Source of the DNA: Eledone cirrhosa
Taxonomy: Eukaryota
Length of the DNA: 64,000 nucleotides
Reading direction: 5' to 3'
Assembly (NCBI GenBank): GCA_964016885.1
Contig: OZ024740.1
Span: forward strand, 214,706,001-214,770,000
Part shown: piece by piece, positions 29,878 to 64,000 of the stretch
How positions within the stretch are numbered: the stretch's first letter is position 1
How the letters are laid out: the number at the start of each line of letters is the position of its first letter
The notes under the pieces: generated by a model
What the model was told of the DNA's origin: nothing
The model's input: the letters and a program-made list of their open reading frames with translations, nothing else
Databases searched by the model: none
Position numbers and translations under genes: made by a program

Positions 29878-31392
29878 AGATCTAGGTTGAACCCAGCACT
29901 ATGGGGCTGCAAAGTGGCGGATCTAGATTGATCCCAGCACTAAGAGGCTATAAAGTGGCGGATCTAGATTGATCCCAGCACTATGGGGCTATAAAGTGGC
30001 GGATCTAGATTGAACCCAGCACTATGGGGCTGTAAAGTGGCAGATCAAGATTGAACCCAGCACTATGGGGCTATAAAGAAGTGGATCAAGATTAAACCCA
30101 GCACTATGGGGCTGTAAAGTGGCGGATGAAGATTGAACCCAGCACTATGGGGCTGTAAAGTGGCGGATCAAGATTGAACCCAGCATTATGGGGCTATAAA
30201 GTGGCGGATCAAGATTGAACCCAGCACTATGGGGCTATAAAGTGGCGGATCAAGATTAAACCCAGCACTATGGGGCTATAAAGTGGCGGATCAAGATTGA
30301 ACCCAGCACTATGGGGCTATAAAGTGGCGAATCAAGATTGAACCCAGCACTATGGGGCTGTAAAGTGGCGGATCAAGATTGAACCCAGCACTATGGGGCT
30401 ATAAAGTGGCGGATCAAGATTAAACCCAGCACTATGGGGCTATAAAGTGGCGGATCAAGATTGAACCCAGCACTATGGGGCTATAAAGTGGCGGATCAAG
30501 ATTAAACCCAGCACTATGGGGCTATAAAGTGGCGGATCAAGATTGAACCCAGCACTATGGGGCTATAAAGTGGCGGATCAAGATTAAACCCAGCACTATG
30601 GGGCTATAAAGTGGCGGATCAAGATTGAACCCAGCACTATGGGGCTATAAAGTGGCGAATCAAGATTGAACCCAGCACTATGGGGCTGTAAAGTGGCGGT
30701 TCAAGATTGAACCCAGCACTATGGGGCTGTAAAGTGGCGGCTCAAGATTGAACCCAGCACTATGGGGCTATAAAGTGGCGGATCAAGATTAAACCCAGCA
30801 CTATGGGGCTATAAAGTGGCGGATCAAGATTGAACCCAGCACTATGGGGCTATAAAGTGGCGGATCAAGATTAAACCCAGCACTATGGGGCTATAAAGTG
30901 GCGGATCAAGATTGAACCCAGCACTATGGGGCTATAAAGTGGCGAATCAAGATTGAACCCAGCACTATGGGGCTGTAAAGTGGCGGATCAAGATTGAACC
31001 CAGCACTATGGGGCTATAAAGTGGCGGATCAAGATTAAACCCAGCACTATGGGGTTATAAAGTGGCAGATCAAGATTGAACCCAGCACTATGGGGCTATA
31101 AAGTGGCGAATCAAGATTGATCCCAGCACTATGGGGCTGTAAAGTGGCGGATCAAGATTGAACCCAGCACTATGGGGCTATAAAGTGGCGGATCAAGATT
31201 AAACCCAGCACTATGGGGCTGTAAAGTGGCGGATCAAGATTGAACCCAGCACTATGGGGCTATAAAGTGGCGGATCAAGATTAAACCCAGCACTATGGGG
31301 CTATAAAGTGGCGGATCAAGATTGAACCCAGCACTATGGGGCTATAAAGTGGCGGATCAAGATTGAACCCAGCACTATGGGGCTGTAAAGTG
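29878..31392. repeat. 41-bp tandem satellite, about 37 copies
   Basis: Unit GATTGAACCCAGCACTATGGGGCTATAAAGTGGCGGATCAA, period measured 30181 to 30222. Confidence 0.97.
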
Positions 31393-31454
31393 AACTTCTC
31401 CATTGAAGAGGCCTACATATCCACACATGTATGTGTAGAAATTTATGTGTGAAA

Positions 31455-34140
31455 GGGTTGTATGTGTGTGGGGAATAGTATGTACAAAGACTTTATATCT
31501 GTGGGGTTGTATGTGTGTGGGCGGCGGGGAGTATGTACAAAGACTTTATATCTGTGGGGTTGTATGTGCGTGTGTGTGGGGGGGGGAGTAGCATGTGCAA
31601 GGACTGCATATCTGCGGGGTTGTATGTGTGTGGGCGGCGGGGAGTATGTACAAGGACGTTATATCTGTGGGGTTGTATGTGTGTGGGCGGCGGGGAGTAT
31701 GTACAAGGTCGTTATATCTGTGGGGTTGTATGTGTGTGGGCGGCGGGGAGTATGTACAAGGACGTTATATCTGTGGGGTTGTATGTGTATGGGCGGCGGG
31801 GAGTATGTACAAGGTCGTTATATCTGTGGGGTTGTATGTGTGTGGGCGGCGGGGAGTATGTACAAGGTCGTTATATCTGTGGGGTTGTATGTGTGTGGGC
31901 GGCGGGGAGTATGTACAAGGACGTTATATCTGTGGGGTTGTATGTGTGTGGGCGGCGGGGAGTATGTACAAGGACGTTATATATGTGGGGTTGTATGTGT
32001 GTGGGCGGCGGGGAGTATGTACAAGGACGTTATATATGTGGGGTTGTATGTGTGTGGGCGGCGGGGAGTATGTACAAGGTCGTTATATCTGTGGGGTTGT
32101 ATGTGTATGGGCGGCGGGGAGTATGTACAAGGACGTTATATATGTGGGGTTGTATGTGTGTGGGCGGCGGGGAGTATGTACAAGGTCGTTATATCTGTGG
32201 GGTTGTATGTGTATGGGCGGCGGGGAGTATGTACAAGGACGTTATATATGTGTGGTTGTATGTGTATGGGCGGCGGGGAGTATGTACAAGGTCGTTATAT
32301 CTGTGGGGTTGTATGTGTGTGGGCGGCGGGGAGTATGTACAAGGACGTTATATCTGTGGGGTTGTATGTGTATGGGCGGCGGGGAGTATGTACAAGGACG
32401 TTATATCTGTGGGGTTGTATGTGTGTGGGCGGCGGGGAGTATGTACAAGGTCGTTATATCTGTGGGGTTGTATGTGTGTGGGCGGCGGGGAGTATGTACA
32501 AGGACGTTATATCTGTGGGGTTGTATGTGTATGGGCGGCGGGGAGTATGTACAAGGACGTTATATATGTGGGGTTGTATGTGTGTGGGCGGCGGGGAGTA
32601 TGTACAAGGTCGTTATATCTGTGGGGTTGTATGTGTGTGGGCGGCGGGGAGTATGTACAAGGTCGTTATATCTGTGGGGTTGTATGTGTGTGGGGGGCGG
32701 GGAGTATGTACAAGGTCGTTATATCTGTGGGGTTGTATGTGTATGGGCGGCGGGGAGTATGTACAAGGACGTTATATATGTGGGGTTGTATGTGTGTGGG
32801 CGGCGGGGAGTATGTACAAGGACGTTATATATGTGGGGTTGTATGTGTATGGCGGCGGGGAGTATGTACAAGGACGTTATATCTGTGGGGTTGTATGTGT
32901 GTGGGCGGCGGGGAGTATGTACAAGGACGTTATATCTGTGGGGTTGTATGTGTATGGGCGGCGGGGAGTATGTACAAGGACGTTATATCTGTGGGGTTGT
33001 ATGTGTGTATGGCGGCGGGGAGTATGTACAAGGACGTTATATATGTGGGGTTGTATGTGTATGGGCGGCGGGGAGTATGTACAAGGACGTTATATCTGTG
33101 GGGTTGTATGTGTGTGGGCGGCGGGGAGTATGTACAAGGTCGTTATATCTGTGGGGTTGTATGTGTGTGGGCGGCGGGGAGTATGTACAAGGACGTTATA
33201 TCTGTGGGGTTGTATGTGTATGGGCGGCGGGGAGTATGTACAAGGACGTTATATATGTGGGGTTGTATGTGTGTGGGCGGCGGGGAGTATGTACAAGGTC
33301 GTTATATCTGTGGGGTTGTATGTGTATGGGCGGCGGGGAGTATGTACAAGGACGTTATATATGTGGGGTTGTATGTGTGTGGGCGGCGGGGAGTATGTAC
33401 AAGGACGTTATATATGTGGGGTTGTATGTGTATGGCGGCGGGGAGTATGTACAAGGACGTTATATAAGTGGGGTTGTATGTGTGTATGGCGGCGGGGAGT
33501 ATGTACAAGGACGTTATATCTGTGGGGTTGTATGTGTGTGGGCGGCGGGGAGTATGTACAAGGACGTTATATCTGTGGGGTTGTATGTGTATGGGCGGCG
33601 GGGAGTATGTACAAGGTCGTTATATCTGTGGGGTTGTATGTGTATGGGCGGCGGGGAGTATGTACAAGGACGTTATATCTGTGGGGTTGTATGTGTATGG
33701 GCGGCGGGGAGTATGTACAAGGACGTTATATAAGTGGGGTTGTATGTGTGTATGGCGGCGGGGAGTATGTACAAGGTCGTTATATCTGTGGGGTTGTATG
33801 TGTATGGGCGGCGGGGAGTATGTACAAGGAGGTTATATATGTGGGGTTGTATGTGTGTGGGCGGCGGGGAGTATGTACAAGGACGTTATATATGTGGGGT
33901 TGTATATGTGTGGGGGGGGGTTAGTTGTGCAAGAGCTGTATATCTGCGGGGGTGGTATATGTGTGGAGGGGGAGTAGCATGTGCAAGAGCTGTATATCTG
34001 TGGGGGTTGTATGTGTGGGGGTGGGAGTGGTAGTATGTTTGGGGCTGTATATGTGTGGGGTTGTATGAGTGTGTGAGGGGAGTATATAAAGGGGGCGTAT
34101 ATCTGTGGGGTTGTATATATTATAGGGTTATATGTGTGTG
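31455..34140. repeat. 53-bp G-rich tandem satellite (homogeneous core about 31615-33905)
   Basis: Unit GTGGGGTTGTATGTGTGTGGGCGGCGGGGAGTATGTACAAGGACGTTATATCT, degenerate edges. Confidence 0.97.
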
Positions 34141-34162
34141 TGTGTACTCGCATTAATCTAAT

Positions 34163-34340
34163 ATAATTGTTTCTACTTTAGGCACAAGGCCAGCAATTAT
34201 CCAGTGCATTACTGGTACTTTATTTTATCGACCCCGTAAGGATGAAAGGCAAAGTCAACCTCGGCGGGATTTGAACTCAGATCATAAAGGGACGTAACTC
34301 TATGCTTCAAAGCATGGCATCCGACCCTTACCGATACTGA
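34163..34340 (-). mobile_element. Deu/Nin-type SINE (deleted subfamily)
   Basis: Closely similar to 11271-11460. Confidence 0.9.
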
Positions 34341-34423
34341 TATAACGAAATCTAATATAATGACATGAAACTAACTGAATATTTTTTAAATATGAAATAT
34401 ATACAGCAAAATAAATATATATC

Positions 34424-37400
34424 CTGTATTCCAATGTATTCCAATGTATATCAATGTATTCCAATGTATATCAATGTATATCAATGTATTCCAATGTATA
34501 TCAATGTATATCAATGTATTCCAATGTATATCAATGTATTCCAATGTATATCAATGTATATCAATGTATATCAATGTATATCAATGTATTCCAATGTATT
34601 CCAATGTATTCCAATGTATTCCAATGTATATCAATGTATATCAATGTATTCCAATGTATATCAATGTATATCAATGTATTCCAATGTAAATCAATGTATA
34701 TCAATGTATTCCAATGTATATCAATGTATTCCAATGTATTCCAATGTATTCCAATGTATATCAATGTATTCCAATGTATTCCAATGTATATCAATGTATT
34801 CCAATGTATTCCAATGTATATCAATGTATATCAATGTATATCAATGTATATCAATGTATTCCAATGTATATCAATGTATATCAATGTATATCAATGTATA
34901 TCAATGTATATCAATGTATTCCAATGTATATCAATGTATTCCAATGTATTCCAATGTATATCAATGTATTCCAATGTATTCCAATGTATATCAATGTATA
35001 TCAATGTATATCAATGTATTCCAATGTATTCCAATGTATATCAATGTATTCCAATGTATTCCAATGTATATCAATGTATTCCAATGTATATGAATATATA
35101 TCAATGTATTCCAATGTATTCCAATGTATATCAATGTATTCCAATGTATTCCAATGTATTCCAATGTATATCAATGTATATCAATGTATATCAATGTATT
35201 CCAATGTATATCAATGTATATCAATGTATATCAATGTATATCAATGTATTCCAATGTATTCCAATGTATATCAATGTATTCCAATGTATATCAATGTATT
35301 CCAATGTATTCCAATGTATATCAATGTATTCCAATGTATTCCAATGTATATCAATGTATTTCAATGTATATCAATGTATTCCAATGTATTCCAATAAATA
35401 TCAATGTATTCCAATGTATATCAATGTATTCCAATGTATTCCAATGTATATCAATGTATTCCAATGTATATCAATGTATTCCAATGTATTCCAATGTATT
35501 CCAATGTATATCAATGTATTCCAATGTATATCAATGTATTCCAATGTATATCAATGTATTCCAATGTATATCAATGTATATCAATGTATTCCAATGTATA
35601 TCAATGTATTCCAATGTATATCAATGTATATCAATGTATTCCAATGTATTCCAATGTATATCAATGTATATCAATGTATTCCAATGTATATCAATGTATA
35701 TCAATGTATATCAATGTATATCAATGTATTCCAATGTATTCCAAAGTATATCAATGTATTCCAATGTATATCAATGTATTCCAATGTATATTAATGTATT
35801 CCAATGTATTCCAATGTATTCCAATATATATCATTGTATTCCAATGTATTCCAATGTATATCAATGTATATCAATATATATCAATATATTCCAATGTATT
35901 CCAATGTATATCAATGTATTCCAATGTATATCAATGTATATCAATATATATCAATGTATTCCAATGTATTCCAATGTATATCAATGTATATCAATGTATA
36001 TCAATGTATTCCAATGTATATTAATGTATTCCAATGTATTCCAATGTATTCCAATATATATCATTGTATTCCAATGTATTCCAATGTATATCAATGTATA
36101 TCAATATATATCAATATATTCCAATGTATTCCAATGTATATCAATGTATTCCAATGTATATCAATGTATTCCAATGTATTCCAATGTATATCAATGTATA
36201 TCATTATATATCAATGTATTCCAATGTATTCCAATGTATATCAATGTATATCAATGTATATCAATGTATTCCAATGTATTCCAATGTATATCAATGTATA
36301 TCAATATATATCAATGTATTCCAATGTATTCCAATGTATTCCAATGTATATCAATGTATTCCAATGTATATTAATGTATTCCAATGTATTCCAATGTATT
36401 CCAATATATATCATTGTATTCCAATGTATTCCAATGTATATCAATGTATATCAATGTATAGCAATGTATATCAATGTATTCCAATGTATTCCAATGTATA
36501 TCAATGTAATCCAATGTATATCAATGTATTCCAATGTATATTAATGTATTCCAATGTATTCCAATGTATTCCAATGTATATCATTGTATTCCAATGTATT
36601 CCAATGTATATCAATGTATATCAATATATATCAATATATTCCAATGTATTCCAATGTATATCAATGTATTCCAATGTATATCAATATATTCCAATGTATT
36701 CCAATGTATATCAATGTATTCCAATGTATATCAATGTATTCCAATGTATTCCAATGTATATCAATGTATATCAATATATATCAATTTATTCCAATGTATT
36801 CCAATGTATATCAATGTATATCAATGTATTCCAATGTATTCCAATGTATATCAATGTATATCAATATATATCAATGTATTCCAATGTATTCCAATGTATA
36901 TCAATGTAAGCCAATGTATATCAATCTATTCCAATGTATTCCAATATATATCAATGTATTCCAATGTATTCCAATGTAGTCCAATGTATATCAATGTATA
37001 TCAATGTATTCCAATGTATTCCAATGTATATCAATGTATTCCATTGTATTCCAATGTATTCCAATGTATATCAATGTATTCCAATGTATATAAATGTATA
37101 TCAACGTATTCCAATGTATATCAATGTATATCAATGTATATCAATGTATTCCAATGTATTCCAATGTATTCCAATGTATATCAATGTATGTCAATGTATA
37201 TCAATGTATTCCAATGTATATCAATGTATTCCAATGTATATCAATGTATTCCAATGTATATCAATGTATATCAATGTATATCAATTTATTCCAATGTATA
37301 TCAATGTATTCCAATGTATTCCAATGTATTCCAATGTATATCAATGTATTCCAATGTATTCCAATGTATATCAATGTATTCCAATGTATATCACTGTATT

Positions 37401-40400
37401 CCAATGTATATCAATGTATATCAATGTATTCCAATGTATATCAATGTATATCAATGTATTCCAATGTATATCAATGTATATCAATGTATAACAATGTATT
37501 CCAATGTATTCCAATGTATATCAATGTATTCCAATGTATATCAATGTATATCAATGTATATCAATGTATTCCAATGTATTCCAATGTATATCAATGTATT
37601 CCAATGTATATCAATGTATTCCAATGTATATCAATGTATATCAATGTATATCAATGTATATATAGTATTCCAATGTATATCAATGTATTCCAATGTATAT
37701 CAATGTATATCAATGTATATCAATGTATTCCAATGTATATCAATGTATATCAATGTATTCCAATGTATATCAATGTATTCCAATGTATATCGATGTATAT
37801 CAATGTATTCCAATGTATTCCAATGTATACCAATGTATATCAATGTATTCCAATGTATATCAATGTATATCAATGTATTCCAATCTATATCAATGTATAT
37901 CAATGTTTATCAATGTATTCCAATGTATTCCAATGTATATCAATGTATTCCAATGTATATCAATGTATATCAATGTATATCAATGTATTCCAATGTATTC
38001 CAATGTATATCAATGTATTCCAATGTATATCAATGTATATCAATATATTCCAATGTATTCCAATGTATATCAATGTATATCAATGTATTCCAATGTATTC
38101 CAATGTATATCAAAATATTCCAATGTATATCAATGTATATCAATGTATATCAATGTATTCCAATGTATATCAATGTATATCAATGTATTCCAATGTATTC
38201 CAATGTATATCAATGTATTCCAATGTATTCCAATGTATATCAATGTATGCCAATGTATATCAATTTATATCAATGTATATCAATGTATTCCAATGTATTC
38301 CAATGTATATCAATGTATATCAATATATATCAATGTATTCCAATGTATTCCTATGTATATCAATGTATTCCAATGTATATCAATGTATTCCAATGTGTAT
38401 CAATGTATTCCAATGTATATCAATGTATATCAATGTATTCCAATGTATATCAATGTATATCAATGTATATCAATGTATTCCAATGTATATCAATGTATTC
38501 CAATGTATATCAATGTATTCCAATGTATATCAATGTATATCAATGTATTCCAATGTATATCAATATATATCAATGTATATCAATGTATTCCAATGTATTC
38601 CAATGTATATCAATGTATTCCAATGTATTCCAATGTATATCAATGTATTCCAATGTATTCCAGTGTATATCAATGTATTCCAATGTATATCAATGTATTC
38701 CAATGTATATCAATGTATATCAATGTATTCCTTGTATTCCAATGTATATCAATGTATATCAATGTATTCCTTGTATTCCAATGTATACCAATGTATATCA
38801 ATGTATTCCAATGTATATCAATGTATATCAATGTATTCCAATGTATATCAATGTATATCAATGTATATCAATGTATATCAATGTATTCCAATGTATATCA
38901 ATGTATTCCAATGTATATCAATGTATTCCAATGTATTCCAATGTATATCAATGTATATCAATGTATTCCAATGTATATCAATGTATATCAATGTATATCA
39001 ATGTATATCAATGTATTCCAATGTATTCCAATGTATATCAATGTATTCCAATGTATATCAATGTATTCCAATGTATATCAATGTATATCAATGTATATCA
39101 ATGTATATCAATGTATTCCAATGTATATCAATATATATCAATGTATTCCAATGTATTCCAATGTATATCAATGTATTCCAATGTATATCAATGTATATCA
39201 ATGTATATCAATATATATCAATGTATTCCAATGTATTCCAATGTATTCCAATGTATATCAATATATTCCAATATATATCAATGTATTCCAATGTATATCA
39301 ATATATATCAATGTATTCCAATGTATTCCAATGTATATCAATATATTCCAATGTATATCAATGTATTCCAATGTATATCAATATATATCAATGTATTCCA
39401 ATGTATTCCAATGTATATCAATGTATTCCAATGTATATCAATGTATTCCAATGTATATCAATGTATTCCAATGTATATCAATGTATATCAATATATATCA
39501 ATGTATTCCAATGTATTCCAATGTATATCAATGTATTCCAATGTATATTAATGTATATCAATGTATATCAATGTATTCCAATGTATATCAATGTATATCA
39601 ATGTATATCAATGTATTCCAATGTATATCAATGTATTCCAATGTATATCAATGTATATCAATGTATTCCAATGTATATCAATGTATATCAATGTATTCCA
39701 ATGTATATCAATGTATATCAATGTATTCCAATGTATATCAATGTATATCAATGTATTCCAATGTACATCAATGTATATCAATGTATTCCAATGTATATCA
39801 ATGTATATCAATGTATATCAATGTATTCCAATGTATATCAATGTATTCCAATGTATATCAATGTATTCCAATGTATATCAATATATATCAATGTATTCCA
39901 ATGTATATCAATGTATATCAATGTATTCCAATATATTCCAATATATATCAATGTATTCCAATGTATTCCAATGTATTCCAATGTATATCAATGTATTCCA
40001 ATGTATATCAATGTATTCCAATGTATATCAATGTATATCAATGTATATCAATGTATTTCAATGTATTCCAATGTATTCCAATGTATATCAATGTATATCA
40101 ATGTATTCCAATGTATATCAATGTATATCAATGTATTCCAATGTATATCAATGTATATCAATGTATTCCAATGTACATCAATGTATATCAATGTATTCCA
40201 ATGTATATCAATGTATATCAATGTATATCAATGTATTCCAATGTATATCAATGTATTCCAATGTATATCAATGTATTCCAATGTATATCAATATATATCA
40301 ATGTATTCCAATGTATATCAATGTATATCAATGTATATCAATGTATTCCAATATATTCCAATGTATATCAATGTATTCCAATGTATATCAATGTATATCA

Positions 40401-43400
40401 ATATATATCAATGTATTCCAATGTATTCCAATGTATTCCAATGTATATCAATGTATTCCAATGTATATCAATGTATTCCAATGTATATCAATGTATTCCA
40501 ATGTATATCAATGTATATCAATGTATATCAATGTATATCAATGTATTCCAATGTATTCCAATGTATATCAATGTATATCAATGTATATCAATGTATATCA
40601 ATGTATATCAATGTATTCCAATGTATTCCAATGTATATCAATGTATATCAATGTATATCAATGTATATCAATGTATATCAATGTATTCCAATATATATCA
40701 ATGTATTCCAATCTATTCCAATGTATATCAATGTATTCCAATGTATATCAATGTATTCCAATGTATATCAATGTATTCCAATGTATATCAATGTATACCA
40801 ATGTATTCCAATGTATATCAATGTATATCAATGTATTCCAATGTATATCAATGTATTCCAATGTATATCAATGTATATCAATGTATATCAATGTATTCCA
40901 ATGTATTCCAATGTATATCAATGTATATCAATGTATATCAATGTATTCCAATGTATTCCAATGTATATCAATGTATTCCAATGTATATCAATGTATTCCA
41001 ATGTATATCAATGTATTCCAATGTATATCAATGTATATCAATGTATTCCAATGTATATCAATGTATATCAATGTATATCAATGTATTCCAATGTATTCCA
41101 ATGTATATCAATGTATATCAATGTATTCCAATGTATTCCAATGTATATCAATGTATTCCAATGTATATCAATCTATTCCAATGTATTCCAATGTATATCA
41201 ATGTATATCAATGTATATCAATGTATACCGATGTATTCCAATGTATATCAATGTATATCAATGTATTCCAATGTATATCAATGTATATCAATGTATTCCA
41301 ATGTATATCAATGTATATCAATGTATATCAATGTATTCCAATGTATATCAATGTATATCAATGTATTCCAATGTATTCCAATGTATATCAATGTATATCA
41401 ATGTATTCCAATGTATTCCAATGTATATCAATGTATTCCAATGTATATCAATCTATTCCAATGTATTCCAATGTATATCAATGTATATCAATGTATATCA
41501 ATGTATACCGATGTATTCCAATGTATATCAATGTATATCAATGTATTCCAATGTATATCAATGTATATCAATGTATTCCAATGTATATCAATGTATATCA
41601 ATGTATATCAATGTATTCCAATGTATATCAATGTATATCAATGTATATCAATGTATTCCAATGTATATCAATGTATATCAATGTATTCCAATGTATATCA
41701 ATATATATCAATGTATTCCAGTGTATATCAATGTATTCCAATGTATATCAATGTATATCAATGTATATCAATGTATTCCAATGTATTCCAATGTATATCA
41801 ATGTATTCCAATGTATATCAATATATATCAATGTATATCAATGTATATCAATGTATATCAATGTATATAAATGTATTCCAATGTATATCAATGTATTCCA
41901 ATGTATATCAATGTATTCCAATGTATACCAATGTATTCCAATGTATATCAATGTATATCAATGTATTCCAATGTATACCAATGTATATCAATGTATATCA
42001 ATGTATTCCAATGTATATCAATGTATTCCAATGTATACCAATGTATATCAATGTATATAAATGTATTCCAATGTATATCAATGTATTCCAATGTATACCA
42101 ATGTATTCCAATGTATATCAATGTATATCAATGTATTCCAATGTATATCAATGTATTCCAATGTATATCAATCTATTCCAATGTATACCAATGTATTCCA
42201 ATGTATATCAATGTATTCCAATGTATATCAATGTATATCAATGTATTCCAATGTATACCAATGTATTCCAATGTATATCAATGTATATCAATGTATTCCA
42301 ATGTATATCAATGTATTCCAATGTATATCAATGTATTCCAATGTATACCAATGTATTCCAATGTATATCAATGTATATAAATGTATTCCAATGTATATCA
42401 ATGTATTCCAATGTATATCAATGTATTCCAATGTATACCAATGTATTCCAATGTATATCAATGTATTCCAATGTATATCAATGTATTCCAGTATATCAAT
42501 GTATTCCAATGTATACCAATGTATTCCAATGTATGTCAATGTCTTCCAATGTATATCAATGTATATCAATGTATTCCAATGTATATCAATGTATTCCAAT
42601 GTATATCAATGTATTCCAATGTATACCAATGTATTCCAATGTATACCAATGTATTCCAATGTATACCAATGTATTCCAATGTATATCAATGTATTCCAAT
42701 GTATACCAATGTATTCCAATGTATATCAATGTATTCCAATGTATATCAATGTATATCAATGTATTCCAATGTATATCAATGTATTCCAATGTATACCAAT
42801 GTATTCCAATGTATATCAATGTATATAAATGTATTCCAATGTATATCAATGTATTCCAATGTATATCAATGTATTCCAATGTATACCAATGTATTCCAAT
42901 GTATATCAATGTATTCCAATGTATATCAATGTATTCCAATGTATATCAATGTATATCAATGTATTCCAATGTATATCAATGTATTCCAATGTATATCAAT
43001 GTATTCCAATGTATACCAATGTATTCCAATGTATATCAATGTATTCCAATGTATATCAATGTATTCCAATGTATATCAATGTATATCAATGTATTCCAAT
43101 GTATACCAATGTATTCCAATGTATATCAATGTATATCAATGTATTCCAATGCATATCAATGTATTCCAATGTATACCAATGTATTCCAATGTATATCAAT
43201 GTATATCAATGTATTCCAATGTATACCAATGTATTCCAATGTATATCAATGTATTCCAATGTATACCAATGTATTCCAATGTATATCAATGTATATCAAT
43301 GTATTCCAATGTATATCAATGTATTCCAATGTATATCAATGTATATCAATGTATTCCAATGTATATCAATGTATATCAATGTATATCAATGTATATCAAT

Positions 43401-43710
43401 GTATTCCAATGTATATCAATGTATTCCAATGTATACCAATGTATTCCAATGTATATCAATATATATCAATGTATTCCAATGTATATCAATGTATTCCAAT
43501 GTATATCAATGTATATCAATGTATATCAATGTATATCAATGTATTCCAATGTATATCAATGTATTCCAATGTATACCAATGTATTCCAATGTATATCAAT
43601 ATATATCAATGTATATCAATGTATTCCAATGTATATCAATGTATTCCAATGTATACCAATGTATTCCAATGTATATCAATGTATATCAATGTATTTCAAT
43701 GTATATCAAT
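34424..43710. repeat. 10-bp satellite, about 9.3 kb, two interspersed unit types
   Basis: ATGTATATCA and ATGTATTCCA. Phase slips near 37661, 38731, 38771 and 42491. Confidence 0.99.
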
Positions 43711-44068: not shown

Positions 44069-44115
<47 letters not shown>

Positions 44116-44132
44116 CGTGTGCGTGTGCGTGT

Positions 44133-44185
<53 letters not shown>

Positions 44186-44187
<2 letters not shown>

Positions 44188-45024
44188 CAATATGTTGAAA
44201 AGGTAACACACTGGAGAGAGATACGGTGCGCCATCAATAAAACAGTGAAAAACCACCAGTGTATGGAATCTATAACCTATGAAAGGCAGAATATAGACAC
44301 GATAATTAAAAATATAAATTAAAGCGTAAACAAATACCTCTATAACTATATAACACACGTACAAATCCAAAGTGATTTGTTTCGCCAGTAAGTTGTTGAC
44401 AGAAATGAAATAACCCAGGTTCATCAGCGTGTTTAAGGTTATACATTTCAGACAACTATGGCTCCGTTAATGTATCGTGATATTTCACTCCTTATAACAG
44501 TATTTCCTCTCTCTCTGTTTGGTTGAGCGCACTTCTCTGAGTGGTTTGGGGCTGCCCTTTCTAGCAGCTCGTCTCTCAGAGGCCACTGGTTCACTGCCCT
44601 TAAACACGCTGTGACTTCTCTCTCCCACGTGTAGTTGGACAGTCTCTTTAAAAATTCTCTTAGTGTTGTCTGAAATGTATAACCTTACACACGCTGATGA
44701 ACTTGGGTTATTTCATTTCTGTCAAAAACTTACAGGCGAAACAGATCACTTTGGATTTGTACGTGTGTTATATAGTTATAGAGGTATTTATTTACGCTTT
44801 AATTTATATTTTTAATTATCGTGACTATATTCTGCCTTTCATAGGTTATAGATTCCATACACTGGTGGTTTTTCACTGTTTTATTGATGGCGCACTGTAT
44901 CTCTCTCTAGTGTGTTACCTTTTCAACATATTGTATTTTAAAGAGCTCAGGATTTCCTCTCCTTTGAGCACATTATTTACAGGGAACGGCGAGAGTCTAT
45001 GGCCCCGTTAATGTATCGTGATAT
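44186..45024. mobile_element. Non-coding PLE/retrozyme-like element: 270-bp inverted arms (44186-44456, 44665-44935), each with a hammerhead
   Basis: Arms align throughout. 28-bp direct repeat at 44456-44483 and 44997-45024. TA/TG-flanked. Confidence 0.85.
44687..44768 (+). ncRNA. Type I hammerhead ribozyme (mirror copy at 44355-44432 on the minus strand)
   Basis: ACACACG-CTGATGA-aCTTG...CAGGc-GAA-ACAGATC(ACTTTG)GATTTGT-A-CGTGTGT: 7-bp stems I and III, GUA site after 44761. First stem II pair is an A/C mismatch. Confidence 0.85.
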
Positions 45025-45053
45025 GTGTATATATATGTGTAATTATATATGTA

Positions 45054-45087
<34 letters not shown>

Positions 45088-45228
45088 TATATATATATAT
45101 GTATATATGTATATATATATATCGATGCATATATGTGTGCGTGTGTGTATATATATATATACATATATACATGCATACATATATACATATATACATATAT
45201 ACATACATATACAAACACACATATATAC

Positions 45229-45267
<39 letters not shown>

Positions 45268-45339
45268 CATACATATATATATATATATACATACATACGA
45301 GTATATATGTGTATATACGTGTGAACGTGTATGGTTGCG

Positions 45340-45483
<144 letters not shown>

Positions 45484-45868: not shown

Positions 45869-46090
45869 GTAGGTTGAGGAAAAAGAGGAAGAGAGGAAGG
45901 GAGTACTCACTCTTGGTGCTCCTGGAGATGAGGGTTGTATATTTTTTCGGGGTGTGTACAACATCCTCCCTATTAGGGATTTCAATTGTTATTTGTTATT
46001 GTATTAATAGTTATTTTTCATATACGTGTATGTAAACTCCCCATTTGTATTTGTCCCCTTCTTTTGTGCCCTTGTGGCTAATAAAGAAAT
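45869..46090 (+). mobile_element. 3' UTR stub of a related Tx1-type LINE in (TATC)n
   Basis: Homologous to 48885-49150 (TGTAAACTCCCCATT..TTGTCCC..TTTTG.TGCCCT.GTGGC.AATAAA). TATC repeats on both sides. Confidence 0.8.
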
Positions 46091-46108
46091 TTATCTATCT
46101 ATCTATCT

Positions 46109-49100
46109 GGTTGGCTATTCAGACCACAAGTTAGTGACCTGCATGGTCAACCTTGACAGAACTCATAGACAGGGACCCGGTTACTGGAAGCTCAACTTGT
46201 CCTTACCGGCAAGTAAGGCTTACAGGGACCGGATTAGCTCTTTAGTTAAGGAACGGTTGACGGGCGCCATCGTCAACAGCAGGTGGTGGGGATCTCTCAA
46301 AAGAGAGATTAGAGTAGTCTCTATAGAATTTAGTAAGGAGTTAGCCTCCAATAGAAATAGGAAGGAAAGGGAGTTGGTAGATAGTGTAGAAGAGGCAATT
46401 AGAAGCGGCGACGTGGCCAGAGTGCTAGCGTCGAGAACGGCCCTGGGCCAGTTCTTCGACGCGAAACACGAAGGCTGCATCGTCCGAATCAAAATACGTG
46501 CTCTGGGAAACGAGGGGACCAAAGCTGTTAGCTGGGCCCGCGTGACAGAAGCCAAAAGAGGGAGCAGATCCACTATCCGGTCTTTGCGAGACCAGGATGG
46601 ACGGGTGATCCTTGAACCTAAGCAGATGTGCGAGGCTTTTCAAAAGCACTTTGCCGGATTGTTCGGAAGGGGCGGGGGGCCGGTTGGGGATGTGGACTTC
46701 GGTCCATACCTCGACGGCCTGCCGCGTCTCTCGGACAGGGGGGCGAAGTCCTGCGAGGAGCCGATTTCAGCCGCTGAGATAGAGGACGTGCTGAGCCAAT
46801 GCGGCAAACGCAAATCCCCGGGTCTCGATGGTCTTCCATACGAACTATATCTAGCTATGCCGGACTTGTTCCCCGATCTCCTCGAGGCGGTCTACTGCAA
46901 CTGGCAACAGAACGGGAGAATTCCCTGTGCTGTGACCAAGGCGTAATCACGCTAGTGAGGAAGGACGAGAACAAGGGGACGATGTAAATAATTTCAGGCC
47001 CATAACTCTGCTAAATACAGAGTTACAGATTTTGTCCAAGGTGCTAGCAAAGAGGTTGGCGCTTGTCGTGGGCAACCTGGTGGGAGATGCGCAGACATGT
47101 GCTATCCCGTCCAGGTCCATCCACGATAACCTCCACCTCATGCGATACATCATAGAGAGGGTTGGGAACGAACCCGGCTTTGGTGGGGCCCTGATCAACT
47201 TGAATCAATCTAAGGCATTCGATAGGGTCGACCATGGTTACCTGGATGCGGTGCTAGCGGCGGCAGGCTTCGGACCCGTTTTCAGGGGCTGGATCAATGC
47301 CATGCACAGCAGCCGCATCTGCTCTAGGGTCAAGGTGAACGGCTACCTCTCGGAGCCGTTCGAAATTGCGCGGTCCATCCAACAGGGGTGCCCACTCTCC
47401 TCCCTTCTGTATGTAATGACTCTAGAGCCACTGCTGCGGAAGTTGGAGTTGTTGCAGGGCATCCCGTTGGAACCGGGATTGCGGAAAGCGGTGTCAGCCT
47501 ACGCCGATGACGTAACAGTAATGGTATCGACGGCCTCGGAAATCGGGGCGATCGGCACCTTACTGGAGGAGTACGAAAGGTTTACAGGGGCTAAGCTGAA
47601 CCGGGACAAGTCGATCGGTCTGCAACTCGGCACGTGGAGGGGAAGATCGATGCCCTTCGACGATGGCGTCGTCGGGCGCTGAACGGAGGGCCCGGTGAAG
47701 TTGCTCGGGGTCTGGTTCGGACCAGACCTCCAGGTGGAGAAGAACTGGGGTGAGGTGACGAACAGGGTGTTTGCACTGACCCAGAAGTGGGCCGAGTGCA
47801 AACTGTCCATGAAAGGTCGGGCGGAGGTGGCGAACACTTATATAGCGTCCGTCATCTACTACCGCCTGACCGTTGTGCCTTGCCCAGGGGAAACGCTCGC
47901 CAAAATGGAGCGCGCACTCTTCCAATTCCTTTGGAAGAAGCGGGCTCCTATGGTGAGGAGATCCATCTGCTGTCAACACCCTTCGAAAGGAGGGCTGGGG
48001 ATGCCGTGGCTAATGATACGTAAACACGCATTAAGGCTACGGCACCTTCAGGTATTCCTCTCCGGTCAACCGGTGTGGGCCCCGTTTGTGAGGCGAGCCT
48101 TTCCCAGACTCGTCTCACTCACCGAGCTGCAATCCTGGGTCAAGCAAAGACCGAGAAAACTGGGCGCCTGGCACACCGAGTGTGCCCAGGAGCTCACGGC
48201 TCTCTGACAGGCGGACCCGGCTGTCAGTGGAGAATCCACCTCGTCATTCTATAGAGGGCTGGTGGTTAGCAGGTGCGACGACGCCCTCGGAGAAGCCCTA
48301 GGCATTGAGGAAGACGAACTGGCCAACCTGTTCGGTAGGACATTCAGCCCGGGACCCATGGATAACTTCCAGAGGTCCCTGGCCTGGCAATGCTACAGAA
48401 GGGCTCTGCCCGTTCGAGAAAGGCTCTACAGACACGGGCGCCCGGGTAGGGACCCATCGAAAAAGATCTGTCCCAGATGCGTGTGCGACGAGGAAACCGT
48501 TGCACACGCATTGGTACACTGCTCGGGCATTGCCGATCTGTGGGGCTATGTCGAACAACTGCTGTCAAGGGTGGGACCGATCCGGTTGACCACCGAGTCT
48601 ATTGTAACGATCAAGCCGCCGCCCCCCTCTTCAAAAACGAAGGAGAGGCGGTGTTTCTGTGCGTAATAGCCATGGCGAAAGAGGTTGTATGGTGGACGCG
48701 TCTGAAAGGACTGAGGTCAGACACCTTTCTCTCTGGCCAACAACTGGTCCGTTTCTTCCGATATCATTTCGGAAGAAGGATCAGGATGGAGAGAGAGGTG
48801 CTGCACCCCAGCCGTTTCTATGAAAGATGGGTGAAAGTGGCGAGAATGGCCCGTGTGAATGGGCCTTCACTCTACATCAGACTATAGGTGAGGAAGATGA
48901 AAGACCAAGGGAGCACCCCTTCTCTGTGCTCCTGAGGAGAAGGGTTGCACACTTTTTTCGGGGGGGGTGTGCGACCCCCCAAGGCGCCTCTTCTCTAGTG
49001 AGGACTTTGTTATAAATTTTATTTTTTGTTATATTTTATTTTATTTTTATATATTGTTATTGCCTCCTCCTTATTGAGGACGCCTTGTTTTGTAAACTCC

Positions 49101-49384: not shown

Positions 49385-52170
49385 TTTTTCTGATACCCAG
49401 AATAACTGGTAAAACAGTTACTAGTTGATTTCTGATAGCCAGAATAACTGATATAACAGTAACTACTGTAATTGGAGCAGTGAATGTCTGATAACCAGAA
49501 TAACTGATATAACAGTAACTGGTGTAATTAGATCAGTGGTTTTCTGTTAGCCAGAATAATTGATATAACAGTAACTGTTATAATTAGAGCAGTGAATTTC
49601 TGCTACCCCGAATAACTGGTATAGCAGTAACTACTGTATTTAGAGCAGTAACTTTCTGATACCCATAATAACTGGTATAACAGTAACTGGTATAGTTAGA
49701 GCAGTGGCTTATGATACCCATAATAACTGGTATAACAGTAACTGCTATAATTAGAGCAGTGGCTTTCTGTTAGCCAGAATAGCTGGTATAACAGTAACTG
49801 GTATAATTAGAGCAGTGTCTTTCTGATATCCAGAATAACTGGTATAGCGGTAACTGGTATAATCAGAGCAGTGACTTTCTGATACCCAGAATAATTGGTA
49901 TAACGGTAACTGGTATAATTAGAGCAGTGACTTTCTGATACCCAGAATAACTGGTATAATGGTAACTGGTATAATTAGAGCAGTGGCTTTCTGTTACCCA
50001 TAATAACTGGTATAACAGTAACTGGTATAATTAGAGCAGTGGCCTTCTGTTACCAGAATAACTGGTATAACAGTAACTGGTATAATTAGAGCAGTGGCTT
50101 TCTGATATCCAGAATAACTGGTATAACGGTAACTGGTATAATCAGAGCAGTGACTTTCTGATACCCAGAATAATTGGTATAACGGTAACTGGTATAATTA
50201 GAGCAGTGAATTTCTGATACCCAGAATAACTGGTATAATGGTAACTGGTATAATTAGAGCAGTGGCTTTCTATTACCCAGAATAACTGATATAACAGTAA
50301 CTGGTATAATTAGAGCAGTTGCTTTCTGATACCCAGAATAACTGATATAACAGTAACTGGTATAATTAGAGCAGTGACTTTCTGATACCCAGAATAACTG
50401 ATATAACAGTAACTGCTATAATTAGAGCAGTGGCTTTCTGATACCCAGAATAACTGATATAACAGTAACTGGTATAATTAGAGCAGTGACTTTCTGATAC
50501 CCAGAATAACTGGTATAACGGTAACTGGTATAATTAGAGCAGTGGCTTTCTAATACACAGAATAACTGATATAACAGTAACTGGTATAATTAGAGCAGTG
50601 AATTTCTGATACCCAGAATAACTGGTATAACGGTAACTGGTATAATTAGAGCAGTGGCTTTCTGATACCCAGAATAACTGGTATAACGGTAACTGGTATA
50701 ATTAGAGCAGTGACTTTCTGATACCCAGAATAACTGGTATAACGGTAACTGGTATAATTAGAGCAGTGACTTTCTGATACCCAGAATAACTGATATAACA
50801 GTAACTGGTATAATTAGAGCAGTGACTTTCTGATACCCAGAATAACTGATATAACAGTAACTGGTATAATTAGAGCAGTGACTTTCTGATACCCAGAATA
50901 ACTGATTTAACAGTAACTGGTATAATTAGAGCAGTGGCTTTCTGATACCCAGAATAACTGATATAACAGTAACTGGTATAATTAGAGCAGTGACTTTCTG
51001 ATACCCAGAATAACTGATATAACAGTAACTGGTATAATTAGAGCAGTGACTTTCTGATACCCAGAATAACTGGTATAACGGTAACTGGTATAATTAGAGC
51101 AGTGACTTTCTGATACCCAGAATAACTGATATAACAGTAACTGGTATAATTAGAGCAGTGACTTTCTGATACCCAGAATAACTGATATAACAGTAACTGG
51201 TATAATTAGAGCAGTGACTTTCTGATACCCAGAATAACTGGTATAACGGTAACTGGTATAATTAGAGCAGTGACTTTCTGATACCCAGAATAACTGGTAT
51301 AACGGTAACTGGTATAATTAGAGCAGTGACTTTCTGATACCCAGAATAACTGATATAACAGTAACTGGTATAATTAGAGCAGTGACTTTCTGATACCCAG
51401 AATAACTGGTATAACGGTAACTGGTATAATTAGAGCAGTGACTTTCTGATACCCAGAATAACTGATATAACAGTAACTGGCATAATTAGAGCAGTGGCTT
51501 TCTGATACCCAGAATAACTGGTATAACGGTAACTGGTATAATTAGAGCAGTGACTTTCTGATACCCAGAATAACTGGTATAACGGTAACTGGTATAATTA
51601 GAGCAGTGACTTTCTGATACCCAGAATAACTGGTATAACAGTAACTGGCATAATTAGAGCAGTGGCTTTCTGATACCCAGAATAACTTGTATAACAGTAA
51701 CTGGCATAATTAGAGCAGTGGCTTTCTGATACCCAGAATAACTGGTATAACAGTAACTGGCATAATTAGAGCAGTGGCTTTCTGATACCCAGAATAACTG
51801 GTATAACAGTAACTGGCATAATTAGAGCAGTGGCTTTCTGATACCCAGAATAACTGGTATAACAGTAACTGGCATAATTAGAGCAGTGGCTTTCTGATAC
51901 CCAGAATAACTGGTATAACAGTAACTGGCATAATTAGAGCAGTGACTTTCTGATACCCAGAATAACTGGTATAACAGTAACTGGCATAATTAGAGCAGTG
52001 GCTTTCTGATACCCAGAATAACTGGTATAACAGTAACTGGCATAATTAGAGCAGTGACTTTCTGATACCCAGAATAACTGGTATAACAGTAACTGGTATA
52101 ATTAGAGCAGTGACTTTCTGATACCCAGAATAACTGGTATAACAGTAACTGGCATAATTAGAGCAGTGAT
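49385..52170. repeat. 56-bp tandem satellite, about 49 copies
   Basis: Unit CTGATACCCAGAATAACTGGTATAACAGTAACTGGTATAATTAGAGCAGTGACTTT with an internal TAACTGGTATAA doublet. Degenerate 5' edge. Confidence 0.97.
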
Positions 52171-59217: not shown

Positions 59218-62200
59218 TAATGTCCCCAGTATTTGACCATTAATTAGTATATTATAATACCACCAATGTCCCCAGTATTTGACCATTAATTAGTATATTA
59301 TAATACCACCAATGTCCCCAGTATTTGACCATTAATTAGTATATGATAATACCACTAATGTCCCCAGTATTTGACCATTAAAATATTTTATTACCACTAA
59401 TGTACCCAGCATTTGATTATTACTTAGTATATTATAATATCACTAATGTCCCCAGTATTTAACTATTACTTAGTATATTATAATACCACTAATATCCCCA
59501 GTATTTGACCATTACTTAGTATAATATAATATCACTAATATCCCCAGTATTTGACCATTACTTAGTATATTATAATACCACTAATGTCCCAGTATTTGAC
59601 TATTACTTAGCATATTATAATATCACTAATGTCCCCAGTATTTGACCATTAGTATATTATAATACCACTAATGTCCCCAGTATTTGACCATTAGTATATT
59701 ATAATACCACTAATGTCCCCAGTATTTGACCATTAGTATATTATAATATCACTAATGTCCCCAGTATTTGACCATTAGTATATTATAATATCACTAATGT
59801 CCCCAGTATTTGACCATTAGTATATTATAATACCACTAATGTCCCCAGTATTTGACCATTAGTATATTATAATACCACTAATGTCCCCAGTATTTGACCA
59901 TTAGTATATTATAATACCACTAATGTCCCCAGTATTTGACCATTAGTATATTATAATACCACTAATGTCCCCAGTATTTGACCATTAGTATATTATAATA
60001 CCACTAATGTCCCCAGTATTTGACCATTACTTAGTATAATACCACTAATGTCCCCAGTATTTGACCATTACTTAGTATAATACCACTAATGTCCCCAGTA
60101 TTTGACCATTAGTATAATACCACTAATGTCCCCAGTATGTGACCATTACTTAGTATAATACCACTAATGTCCCCAGTATTTGACCATTACTTAGTATAAT
60201 ACCACTAATGTCCCCAGTATTTGACCATAATTATTATAAAACCACTAATGTCCCCAGTATTTGACCATTACTTAGTATAATACCACTAATGTCCCCAGTA
60301 TTTGACCATTACTTAGTATATTACCACTAATGTCCCCAGTATTTGACCATTACTTAGTATAATACCACTAATGTCCCCAGTATGTGACCATTACTTAGTA
60401 TAATACCACTAATGTCCCCAGTATTTGACCATTACTTAGTATATTACCACTAATGTCCCCAGTATTTGACCATTACTTAGTATAATACCACTAATGTCCC
60501 CAGTATTTGACCATTACTTAGTATAATACCACTAATGTCCCCAGTATTTGACCATTACTTAGTATAATACCACTAATGTCCCCAGTATTTGACCATTACT
60601 TAGTATAATACCACTAATGTCCCCAGTATTTGACCATAATTATTATAAAACCACTAATGTCCCCAGTATTTGACCATTACTTAGTATAATACCACTAATG
60701 TCCCCAGTATTTGACCATTACTTAGTATATTACCACTAATGTCCCCAGTATTTGACCATTACTTAGTATATTACCACTAATGTCCCCAGTATTTGACCAT
60801 TACTTAGCATAATACCACTAATGTCCCCAGTGTTTGACCATTACTTAGTATAATACCACTAATGTCCCCAGTATTTGACCATTACTTAGTATATTACCAC
60901 TAATGTCCCCAGTATTTGACCATTACTTAGTATATTACGACTAATGTCCCCAGTATTTGACCATTACTTAGTATAATACCACTAATGTCCCCAGTATTTG
61001 ACCATTACTTAGTATAATACCACTAATGTCCCCAGTATTTGACCATTACTTAGTATATTACGACTAATGTCCCCAGTATGTCACCATTACTTAGTATATT
61101 ACCACTAATGTCCCCAGTATTTGACCATTACTTAGCATAATACCACTAATGTCCCCAGTGTTTGACCATTACTTAGTATAATACCACTAATGTCCCCAGT
61201 ATTTGACCATTACTTAGTATATTACCACTAATGTCCCCAGTATTTGACCATTGCTTAGTATATTACCACTAATGTCCCCAGTATTTGACCATTACTTAGT
61301 ATAATACCACTAATGTCCCCAGTATTTGACCATAATTATTATAAAACCACTAATGTCCCCAGTATTTGACCATAATTATTATAATACCACTAATATCCCC
61401 AGTATTTGACCATTACTTAGTATAATACCACTAATGTCCCCAGTATTTGACCATTACTTAGTATATTACGACTAATGTCCCCAGTATGTCACCATTACTT
61501 AGTATATTACCACTAATGTCCCCAGTATTTGACCATTACTTAGTATATTACCACTAATGTCCCCAGTATTTGACCATTACTTAGTATATTACCACTAATG
61601 TCCCCAGTATTTGACCATTACTTAGTATATTACCACTAATGTCCCCAGTATTTGACCATTACTTAGTATATTATCACTAATGTCCCCAGTATTTGACCAT
61701 TACTTAGTATAATACCACTAATGTCCCCAGTATTTGACCATAATTATTATAAAACCACTAATGTCCCCAGTATTTGACCATTACTTAGTATAATACCACT
61801 AATGTCCCCAGTATTTGACCATTAGTATAATACCACTAATGTCCCCAGTATTTGACCATTACTTAGTATAATACCACTAATGTCCCCAGTATTTGACCAT
61901 TACTTAGTATAATACCACTAATGTCCCCAGTATTTGACCATTAGTATAATACCACTAATGTCCCCAGTATTTGACCATTACTTAGTATAATACCACTAAT
62001 GTCCCCAGTATTTGACCATTACTTAGTATAATACCACTAATGTCCCCAGTATTTGACCATTAGTATAATACCACTAATGTCCCCAGTATTTGACCATTAC
62101 TTAGTATAATACCACTAATGTCCCCAGTATGTGACCATTACTTAGTATAATACCACTAATGTCCCCAGTATTTGACCATTACTTAGTATAATACCACTAA

Positions 62201-63782
62201 TGTCCCCAGTATTTGACCATTACTTAGTATAATACCACTAATGTCCCCAGTATTTGACCATTACTTAGTATAATACCACTAATGTCCCCAGTATTTGACC
62301 ATTACTTAGTATAATACCACTAATGTCCCCAGTATTTGACCATAATTATTATAATACCACTAATACCCCCAGTATTTGACCATTACTTAGTATAATACCA
62401 CTAATGTCCCCAGTATTTGACCATTACTTAGTATATTACGACTAATGTCCCCAGTATGTCACCATTACTTAGTATATTACCACTAATGTCCCCAGTATTT
62501 GACCATTACTTAGTATAATACCACTAATGTCCCCAGTATTTGACCATTACTTAGTATATTACCACTAATGTCCCCAGTATTTGACCATTACTTAGTATAA
62601 TACCACTAATGTCCCCAGTATTTGACCATAATTATTATAAAACCACTAATGTCCCCAGTATTTGACCATAATTATTATAATACCACTAATATCCCCAGTA
62701 TTTGACCATTACTTAGTATAATACCACTAATGTCCCCAGTATTTGACCATTACTTAGTATATTACGACTAATGTCCCCAGTATGTCACCATTACTTAGTA
62801 TATTACCACTAATGTCCCCAGTATTTGACCATTACTTAGTATATTACCACTAATGTCCCCAGTATTTGACCATTACTTAGTATATTACCACTAATGTCCC
62901 CAGTATTTGACCATTACTTAGTATATTACCACTAATGTCCCCAGTATTTGACCATTACTTAGTATATTACCACTAATGTCCCCAGTATTTGACCATTACT
63001 TAGTATAATACCACTAATGTCCCCAGTATTTGACCATAATTATTATAAAACCACTAATGTCCCCAGTATTTGACCATTACTTAGTATAATACCACTAATG
63101 TCCCCAGTATTTGACCATTAGTATAATACCACTAATGTCCCCAGTATTTGACCATTACTTAGTATAATACCACTAATGTCCCCAGTATTTGACCATTACT
63201 TAGTATAATACCACTAATGTCCCCAGTATTTGACCATTAGTATAATACCACTAATGTCCCCAGTATTTGACCATTACTTAGTATAATACCACTAATGTCC
63301 CCAGTATTTGACCATTACTTAGTATAATACCACTAATGTCCCCAGTATTTGACCATTACTTAGTATATTACCACTAATGTCCCCAGTATGTGACCATTAC
63401 TTAGTATAATACCACTAATGTCCCCAGTATTTGACCATTAGTATAATACCACTAATGTCCCCAGTATTTGACCATTACTTAGTATAATACCACTAATGTC
63501 CCCAGTATTTGACCATTACTTAGTATATTACCACTAATGTCCCCAGTATTTGACCATTAGTATATTATAATACCACTAATGTCCCCAGTATTTGACCATT
63601 ACTTAGTATAATACCACTAATGTCCCCAGTATTTAACCATTACTTAGTATAATACCACTAATGTCCCCAGTATTTGACCATTACTTAGTATAATACCACT
63701 AATGTCCCCAGTATTTGACCATTACTTAGTATAATACCACTAATGTCCCCAGTATTTGACCATAATTATTATAAAACCAGTA
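59218..63782. repeat. 41-bp tandem satellite (37, 42 and 46-bp variants), about 110 copies
   Basis: Unit TAATGTCCCCAGTATTTGACCATTACTTAGTATAATACCAC, period measured 60481 to 60522. Confidence 0.98.
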
Positions 63783-64000
63783 ATAATAATAAACAAAACA
63801 AGACCAGCAACTCACGAAACTCCATTATACAACTGACATTGAGAAAAGATTCCAAACTGTATTTACAGAAAATATTAGTCACATATATTTGTGCAGCCAA
63901 CTATATTCCCCCCATATTGATAACAATAGCCTATATGTCTATATACATGTCAATATTATATGATAAAAATAAACTCCTTCATTTTACATTTCTTATACAT

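Follow-up and report, generated by a model that had tools for sequence, protein, structure and literature searches.

A dispersed non-coding hammerhead repeat of Eledone cirrhosa whose copies carry the insertion signature of PLEs

Animal non-LTR retrozymes and endonuclease-bearing PLEs are the described systems closest to the repeat reported here. The circular RNAs of animal retrozymes are predicted to leave the ribozyme free, unlike those of plants (Cervera 2020, PMC7229834); a ribozyme switched off within the circle is seen in viroids and plant retrozymes and is not known to have been reported for animal ones. According to Li 2026 (10.64898/2026.07.22.740005), only 1 of 9 tested retrozyme dimers was cleaved. 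Cervera & de la Pena 2014 (PMC4209133) describe the canonical type I motifs of metazoans as having a short helix III of 1-2 bp and report a long helix III for the PLEs of fungi and protists. In Craig 2021 (PMC8557442) and Arkhipova 2013 (PMC3846280), PLE insertions are partial tandems that carry a truncated copy in inverted orientation and, at one end, a tail. In the account of the Poseidon element PAc by Frangieh 2024 (PMC11167929), both AT-rich DNA strands are nicked and extended from two internal RNA starts, the tail is the stretch between these two internal RT start sites, downstream of the hammerhead, and the ribozyme is dispensable for insertion, with uncut RNA as the substrate. PLE mobilisation of animal retrozymes has so far been argued from co-occurrence and sequence trees.

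We analysed a hammerhead-bearing unit in a stretch of 64,000 nucleotides of the Eledone cirrhosa genome (assembly GCA_964016885.1, contig OZ024740.1, positions 214,706,001 to 214,770,000, forward strand; hereafter the window), together with its copies elsewhere in the genome. We observe that the unit is a member of a dispersed non-coding hammerhead-bearing repeat family and that the copies carry the PLE insertion signature, namely, 5' truncation, partial tandems, an inverted copy, an optional tail, and a (TA)n target. The reading that we hold to be fairly probable is that such a repeat is copied in trans by a PLE RT/GIY-YIG enzyme from a circle likely made by the ribozyme. An earlier note on this DNA had called the unit retrozyme-type, non-coding, and hammerhead-bearing with a period of 541 nt, a description that holds and to which the PLE insertion marks of the copies are now added.

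The region of interest (44185-45024; Table 1) is set between (TG)n/(TA)n microsatellites. Unit coordinates (u) count positions within the 541-nt unit, with u1 at 44456. The same 28-mer, with 1 mismatch, stands at both ends of the unit at a spacing of 541, as the earlier note had it, so that the unit is terminally redundant in the literal sense. Since a unit is preceded by another unit, the 28-mer is merely the part of the next unit that reaches to site B, and the redundancy is a head-to-tail tandem overhang, not a fixed terminal repeat. The inverted copy with a second ribozyme on the other strand was likewise borne out; the two inverted arms (44185-44456 and 44665-44936) are 272 nt each and 97% identical. 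The copy would thus consist of a B-primed cDNA of 569 nt (one unit plus 28) and an A-primed cDNA of 272 nt. GTGTATATAT occurs on both sides of it, and flank repeats were found in 10 of 81 A/B copies compared with 6.6 after permutation (P = 0.09); for this reason, we do not claim a target-site duplication. Elsewhere in the window there are large satellite arrays with periods of 41, 53, 10, 56, and 41 nt (29879-43710, 49429-52169, and 59218-63784), as well as a frameshifted non-LTR retrotransposon ORF2 with an RVT_1 match (46011-48887, + strand), which we take to be L1/Tx1-like and which is unrelated to the hammerhead unit.

Table 1. Features of the hammerhead-bearing copy and its flanks (window coordinates)
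Feature	Position	Strand	Details
Left target flank	44079..44184		(AT)n/(TG)n microsatellite
Inverted arm	44185..44456	-	Unit positions 481 to 210; 3' end 44185 = site A, adjoins TG/TA microsatellite
Second type I hammerhead	44353..44434	-	Core 44427, predicted cut after 44360; stem I with one mismatch
One complete non-coding 541-nt unit	44456..44996	+	GC 0.39
28-mer at 5' truncation point of direct arm	44456..44483	+	Overlaps inverted arm by 1 nt
5' leader complementary to loop II	44665..44684	+	Covaries between families A and B
Type I hammerhead	44687..44768	+	CTGATGA 44694-44700, GAAA 44738-44741, predicted cut after 44761
104-codon hydrophobic open frame	44697..45011	+	ATG inside ribozyme core; judged non-functional
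Loop II part complementary to leader	44706..44728	+	Duplex prediction, covariation
Site A	44926..44936	+	Unit ~476-485; first fixed 3' end, putative reverse-transcription start
"Tail" from site A to site B	44937..45024	+	88 nt
Next unit's start (28-mer)	44997..45024	+	Ends at site B, 45024, second fixed 3' end
Right target flank	45025..45480		(TA)n/(TG)n microsatellite

The absence of a credible ORF, as stated in the earlier note, holds with a single correction, the 104-codon ATG frame. This frame is intact in 14 of 53 copies, is broken by shared stops in one subfamily and also in sister family B, and has no Pfam match; frames of 104 codons are reached in 150 of 5,000 shuffles (3%). On these grounds we rejected it as a gene.

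Across the 3.0-Gb genome, the unit yielded 2,735 first-look candidates, 40 of which were scored, and the ribozyme part alone 1,220 candidates. A 23-mer at u459-481 has 2,163 exact matches genome-wide (reversed control, 0), and our main sample was taken from its first 100 matches in genome order, which gave 76 loci after 4 duplicate loci had been dropped. The identity of the copies to the window unit ranges from 82 to 98%, and subfamilies can be distinguished among them. With a relaxed pattern we recovered a sister family, family B, that is ~70-75% identical, has 1,866 candidates, and shows the same build. In contigs from three sequencing runs, all of a single sample of unrecorded kind, the unit is present with 3'-biased depth and a 541-nt go-back joint. 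Among the papers listed for octopus/cephalopod Penelope elements, hammerheads, and microsatellites, we found no description of the family. Some copies are rearranged internally: a family copy at L160 (G000:C1:74008600-74013500) has an 87-nt internal tandem with three identical copies of about u411-497, and at L207/L233 a family-B copy has a tandem junction that links the CT repeat near u450 directly with the one near u55, giving a shorter permuted unit.

With respect to the ribozyme, the claim of a near-canonical type I hammerhead was upheld for the motif and its 7-bp stem III (closing A-U pair included, with GTA before the predicted cut) and not for stem II, which is weak, nor for the fold, which is not the minimum-energy structure. 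Stem I has 7 bp (44687-44693 with 44762-44768), loop II is 27 nt long, and stem II consists of an A.C closing pair, seen in most copies, plus 2-4 further pairs. The motif was found in 0 of 3000 dinucleotide-type shuffles (descriptor scan). Rfam scans returned no hammerhead family here, neither at gathering score nor at E ≤ 10, probably because loop II is 27 nt. The hammerhead is conserved in 59 family-A and 39 A+B sequences, with core positions 95-99% conserved among copies (except U7, 86%), stems I and III holding in 90-99% of cells, and stem II in 71-73%, its closing pair being A.C or A-U. In one subfamily, read by eye, stem I is changed on both sides. Cleavage of the unit RNA by itself is predicted after 44761. 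The long stem III had been taken as a mark that sets the unit apart from minimal PLE motifs; this does not stand, since PMC4209133 places long helix III in fungal and protist PLEs. Three other hammerhead-like motifs with short stem III, at 1759, 3617, and 9684 of the window (+ strand), are unrelated to the unit; the 3617 type and the 9684 type recur in other loci (L040 and L073; L050) and probably belong to other PLE-related repeats.

The RNAfold minimum-energy fold differs from the hammerhead for both window copies (+ and -), and in 11 of 11 copies the hammerhead fold lies 1.1-8.3 kcal/mol above the minimum, staying above it when the leader is left out. The leader (u210-229) and loop II (u251-273) have complementary sequences; the predicted duplex energies are -11.7 to -17.8 kcal/mol for 10 of the 11 copies, the remaining one having -6.3. 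Across families A and B, one pair of this helix is A-U in 16, G-C in 18, and G-U in 4 sequences, a second pair is C-G in 14 and A-U in 6, and the covariation score was reached by 0 of 500 shuffles. Support within family A alone is marginal (6-19 of 500 shuffles), and independent covariation events are few because the counts come from two related families. Judging from the predicted pairing, the helix may lock or support the ribozyme, or may be a pseudoknot contact.

The 3' ends of the copies fall at two sites, A at u474-487 (44936) and B at u555-569 (45024), 88 nt apart, and 97 of 105 arm 3' ends adjoin (TA)n. The 5' ends are scattered, with arm lengths of 33-1,305 nt; 26 of 105 arms are longer than one unit, and most loci hold less than 1.5 units. 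At least two consecutive head-to-tail units with complete hammerheads, the criterion of Li 2026, occur in the family at L012, L020, L187, and L328, and the window copy itself has just one direct and one inverted hammerhead. With regard to the tandem arrays and permuted copies for which the earlier note had suggested a genome search, the loci sampled contain tandems (three units at L328) and lend no support to free circular permutation, the 3' ends being fixed at two sites and the 5' ends alone varying.

The 76 loci comprise 52 head-to-head inversions, 21 single-orientation loci (11 ending at A, 9 at B, and 1 elsewhere), and 3 complex ones. Among the 52 inversions, 44 were scored A/B, 8 had one end scored elsewhere, and 0 were scored A/A or B/B; by eye, L119 reads as A/A, L151 as B/B-like, and L165 as A/B. 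Similar counts were obtained in a second set of 69 loci (25 of 37 inverted copies A/B, 12 other) and in 28 family-B loci (10 of 13 A/B, 3 other), again with none scored A/A or B/B, so that 79 of 102 inverted copies are A/B in the three samples pooled. Two fixed 3' ends and their A/B pairing are a property of the family, and we consider it probable that they stem from twin priming, one priming per target strand, at A and B.

The account given in the earlier note was that an RT went once around the template and then inverted: a single enzyme would copy one turn plus 28 nt and then fold back or switch to its own cDNA, with the inverted arm arising by self-priming. Such a single-cDNA fold-back requires the inverted arm to lie within the first arm, as it does in the window copy (210-481), where fold-back is feasible, and junction palindromes have been argued to indicate self-priming in the rotifer PLEs treated by Arkhipova 2013 (PMC3846280). 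Arm pairs ending within 25 nt of each other, which would also suit it, number 13 of 59 compared with 8.6 after permutation (P = 0.07). Among the 59 simple A/B copies, however, fold-back is feasible in 34, close to the 31.0 obtained by permutation (P = 0.22), and impossible in 25, where neither arm could have templated the other, with the caveat that post-insertion deletions at inverted junctions could mimic such cases. In addition, the outer end of the inverted arm is the fixed site A, paired with B, and nothing would make a fold-back product end precisely at the second of the two start sites; moreover, either site heads the longer or the shorter arm. Two primings thus fit better than one turn followed by inversion, and we regard the latter as improbable. 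Overlaps of 1-17 nt at 30 of 47 junctions, as well as subfamily variants shared by both arms of a locus (558 of 615 diagnostic cells, 349 expected), together with the fold-back failures, point to one priming at A and one at B, both on RNA from a single source. A satellite or foldback element amplified at the DNA level by recombination, with the hammerhead a chance occurrence or a relic, would agree with a neighbourhood rich in microsatellites and repeats and with the segmental duplicates among the loci; it is refuted by the 3'-anchored, 5'-truncated pattern of dispersed single insertions with 3'-biased depth, and with the motif absent from the shuffles mentioned above its probability is negligible. 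That the unit is instead the pseudo-LTR (pLTR) of an autonomous PLE, the copies being 5'-truncated coding elements, agrees with an architecture identical to that of PLE pLTRs, and at one locus (L168/L394) a nearly complete Poseidon-type ORF is joined directly to the unit. What lies upstream of the unit in 146 tandem pairs is nevertheless the previous unit (period 541), no ORF-like upstream flank is shared among 65 flanks, and the ORF is joined in just 1 of 313 family loci, where it breaks off mid-domain and meets the unit midway, so that this reading is largely refuted and, in our view, highly improbable. The same count bears on the expectation that copies might always be attached to a PLE ORF, which is not what we found.

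As regards the template, the same kind of non-autonomous, twin-primed element could be copied from an uncut tandem transcript, or through RT jumps, with no circle and with a hammerhead that is mostly off or has another role. This is unlikely in our estimate, yet to be reckoned with, because PAc inserts from unprocessed RNA and its ribozyme mutants leave insertion unaffected, as described in PMC11167929, and because the leader helix shifts the energy minimum to a fold other than the hammerhead. We counted 989 copies with intact read-through of the cut site, whereas patterns with a changed base just upstream of it gave 25, 255, and 41 matches, of which 2 of 25, 2 of 30 (one exactly there), and 7 of 30 (one an internal deletion) loci examined were flagged as 5' ends at the cut. 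Scaled up, ~20 of ~1,310 copies (<2%) end at the cut site compared with ~1% expected from the general truncation rate, indicating that a cut linear monomer is not the main template; a search across copies showed no clear accumulation of 5' ends at the cut. In the unbiased sample, 52 of 105 arms cross the cut site and 4 of 105 end at u306-309, a possible small excess and a weak hint that some cut linear RNA is copied. Read-through in about 98% of copies fits a circular template and an uncut tandem transcript equally well. Against the uncut template, most loci are shorter than 1.5 units, and the first 100 position-ordered read-through matches contain same-strand pairs at ~541 without any longer run; tandems would be worn down by repeated 5' truncation if nothing regenerated them, and the core and stems I and III have been kept across families A and B, which are 25-30% apart. 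The persistence of tandems in two old families in which most loci have less than 1.5 units favours a circle, and a circular RNA template is, on balance, likely. In 146 tandem pairs, some of which may come from the same locus, no change is fixed between the upstream and the downstream unit (top change, 5 of 33-58). Long source arrays may exist beyond the loci sampled.

The genome is rich in PLEs, of Neptune type by their linker cysteines and apparently also of Poseidon and Hydra type, to judge from a reading of the sequences. In the search for an autonomous parent, the unit showed no similarity to 50 GIY-YIG (PF01541) loci; a profile of families A+B against the same 50 loci gave one strong match, which is a separate unit insertion in L035, and 30 Poseidon-type loci share no sequence with the unit. 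These 80 loci sample some of the PLE families of the genome. Two further candidates were set aside, namely, widely spaced copies, which are segmental duplicates, and an AT-rich similarity to the 3' UTRs of Neptune-type elements, which is weak (E = 0.013) and lies on the opposite strand. A PLE protein match is found near 34 of 313 family loci. It is upstream, on the same strand, and within 900 nt at 5 loci, and at 4 of these either an inverted arm or (TA)n or other DNA intervenes between it and the unit. At L394 (G000:C1:84943500-84953000, - strand)/L168, the Poseidon-type ORF joins the unit at u383 with a few-base microhomology and no (TA)n; it is a nearly complete RT/GIY-YIG frame, frameshifted and broken off in the endonuclease domain, and about 55-58% identical to a young Poseidon-type family. 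From its sequence, this chimera could be either a template switch or a later deletion, and in the former case the mobilising PLE family would be identified. Autonomous PLEs of the genome, examined by eye, have two ends about 55-65 nt apart. Loci L364-L393 represent a very young Poseidon-type family (96-98% amino-acid identity, many open frames of ~900 aa); it targets (TA)n, its two 3' ends are separated by about 55-60 nt, and its ORF begins within the tail. Several Neptune-type families (L031-L080) end in (TA)n and have, close to the 3' end, a palindrome resembling GAAACCGGT, and hammerhead-unit copies often share a TA run with Neptune-type PLE ends (L125, L153, L166, and L284).

Under the reading we favour, in which a PLE enzyme copies the repeat in trans, the type I hammerhead would cleave a tandem or read-through transcript to 541-nt monomers, ligation would close these into circles, and the leader:loop II helix would prevent re-cutting of the template or make a pseudoknot contact. 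A PLE enzyme, probably a dimer, would then nick both strands of the (TA)n target, for which the copies display the preference; cDNA synthesis would be primed by one nick at B and by the other nick 88 nt further upstream, at A, on one RNA or on RNAs of the same source. Each cDNA would run a variable distance, past the cut site and, if processive, beyond one unit, as the arms do, and the two cDNA ends would join by 0-10 nt of microhomology, the overlap seen at junctions, to give the head-to-head inversion. Going further, the unit might be a self-locking circular-RNA parasite, a 541-nt circle with a helix-silenced ribozyme and one dimeric PLE enzyme priming both strands. We put this forward as a tentative and rather doubtful extension; if true, coupled twin priming would have left a genome-scale record in the A/B pairing, and the insertions would provide direct evidence for PLE mobilisation of retrozymes.

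In this family, the insertion signature of PLEs is displayed by a hammerhead unit that codes for no protein, and it recurs through thousands of copies; the near-absolute A/B pairing at opposite ends of inverted copies and the many arm pairs that fold-back could not produce bear on the open question of how PLE inversions and tails originate. The unit is also a small natural substrate on which circle-templated, two-site TPRT could be studied, as could the regulation of a genomic hammerhead by a long-range helix. By its sequence features, it appears to behave like a non-autonomous PLE and at the same time to qualify as a non-LTR retrozyme; this broad class has been described before, and no indication of a host function emerged.

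Compared with the non-autonomous PLEs of the Chlamys type, such as MRC1 of Chlamydomonas (as described in PMC8557442), the unit is likewise non-coding, with pLTRs and multicopy head-to-tail insertions shared. Chlamys PLEs are there said generally to resemble the autonomous family at the 3' end and to form a clade without canonical hammerheads; the present unit differs in its animal host, its full hammerhead, and the lack of a parent among the 80 PLE loci sampled. The leader:loop II helix resembles the pseudoknotted hammerheads in the account of Perreault 2011 (PMC3088659) in its Watson-Crick pairing of the stem I side with loop II, although here it can be extended to about 18 bp, too long for full coexistence with stem II; as in the self-blocked plant retrozyme and viroid hammerheads covered in PMC7229834, the pairing would sequester part of the ribozyme. 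With the animal non-LTR retrozymes, as portrayed in PMC7229834 and by Li, Clavereau & Pollet 2026 (10.64898/2026.07.22.740005), the family shares non-coding head-to-tail hammerhead units with a GC below 50%, monomers to short multimers with a type I hammerhead in each unit, and coexistence with PLEs. Its 541-nt unit exceeds the usual 150-450 bp given by Cervera and lies within the 51-972 bp given by Li, and cleavage and circles are here predicted from sequence. Unlike what these sources describe, the copies are mostly dispersed insertions of 0.1-1.5 units with inverted arms and two fixed 3' ends, and the hammerhead has a long stem III, a 27-nt loop II, and a self-pairing helix that could block it. 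Relative to the endonuclease-bearing PLEs (Poseidon PAc, PMC11167929; Neptune/Naiad, PMC8557442; rotifer Penelopes, PMC3846280), as far as these sources describe them, the family has no ORF, a monomer-type instead of a minimal dimer-type hammerhead, and no detectable homology to the sampled PLE pLTRs of the genome, and its 88-nt tail is longer than the 30-40 nt of published PLEs, which counts against the reading we favour. In line with these same PLEs, its copies combine 5' truncation, partial tandems, and an inverted 5' copy with an optional tail at one end, a hammerhead upstream of two RT start sites, and AT-rich or (TA)n targets.
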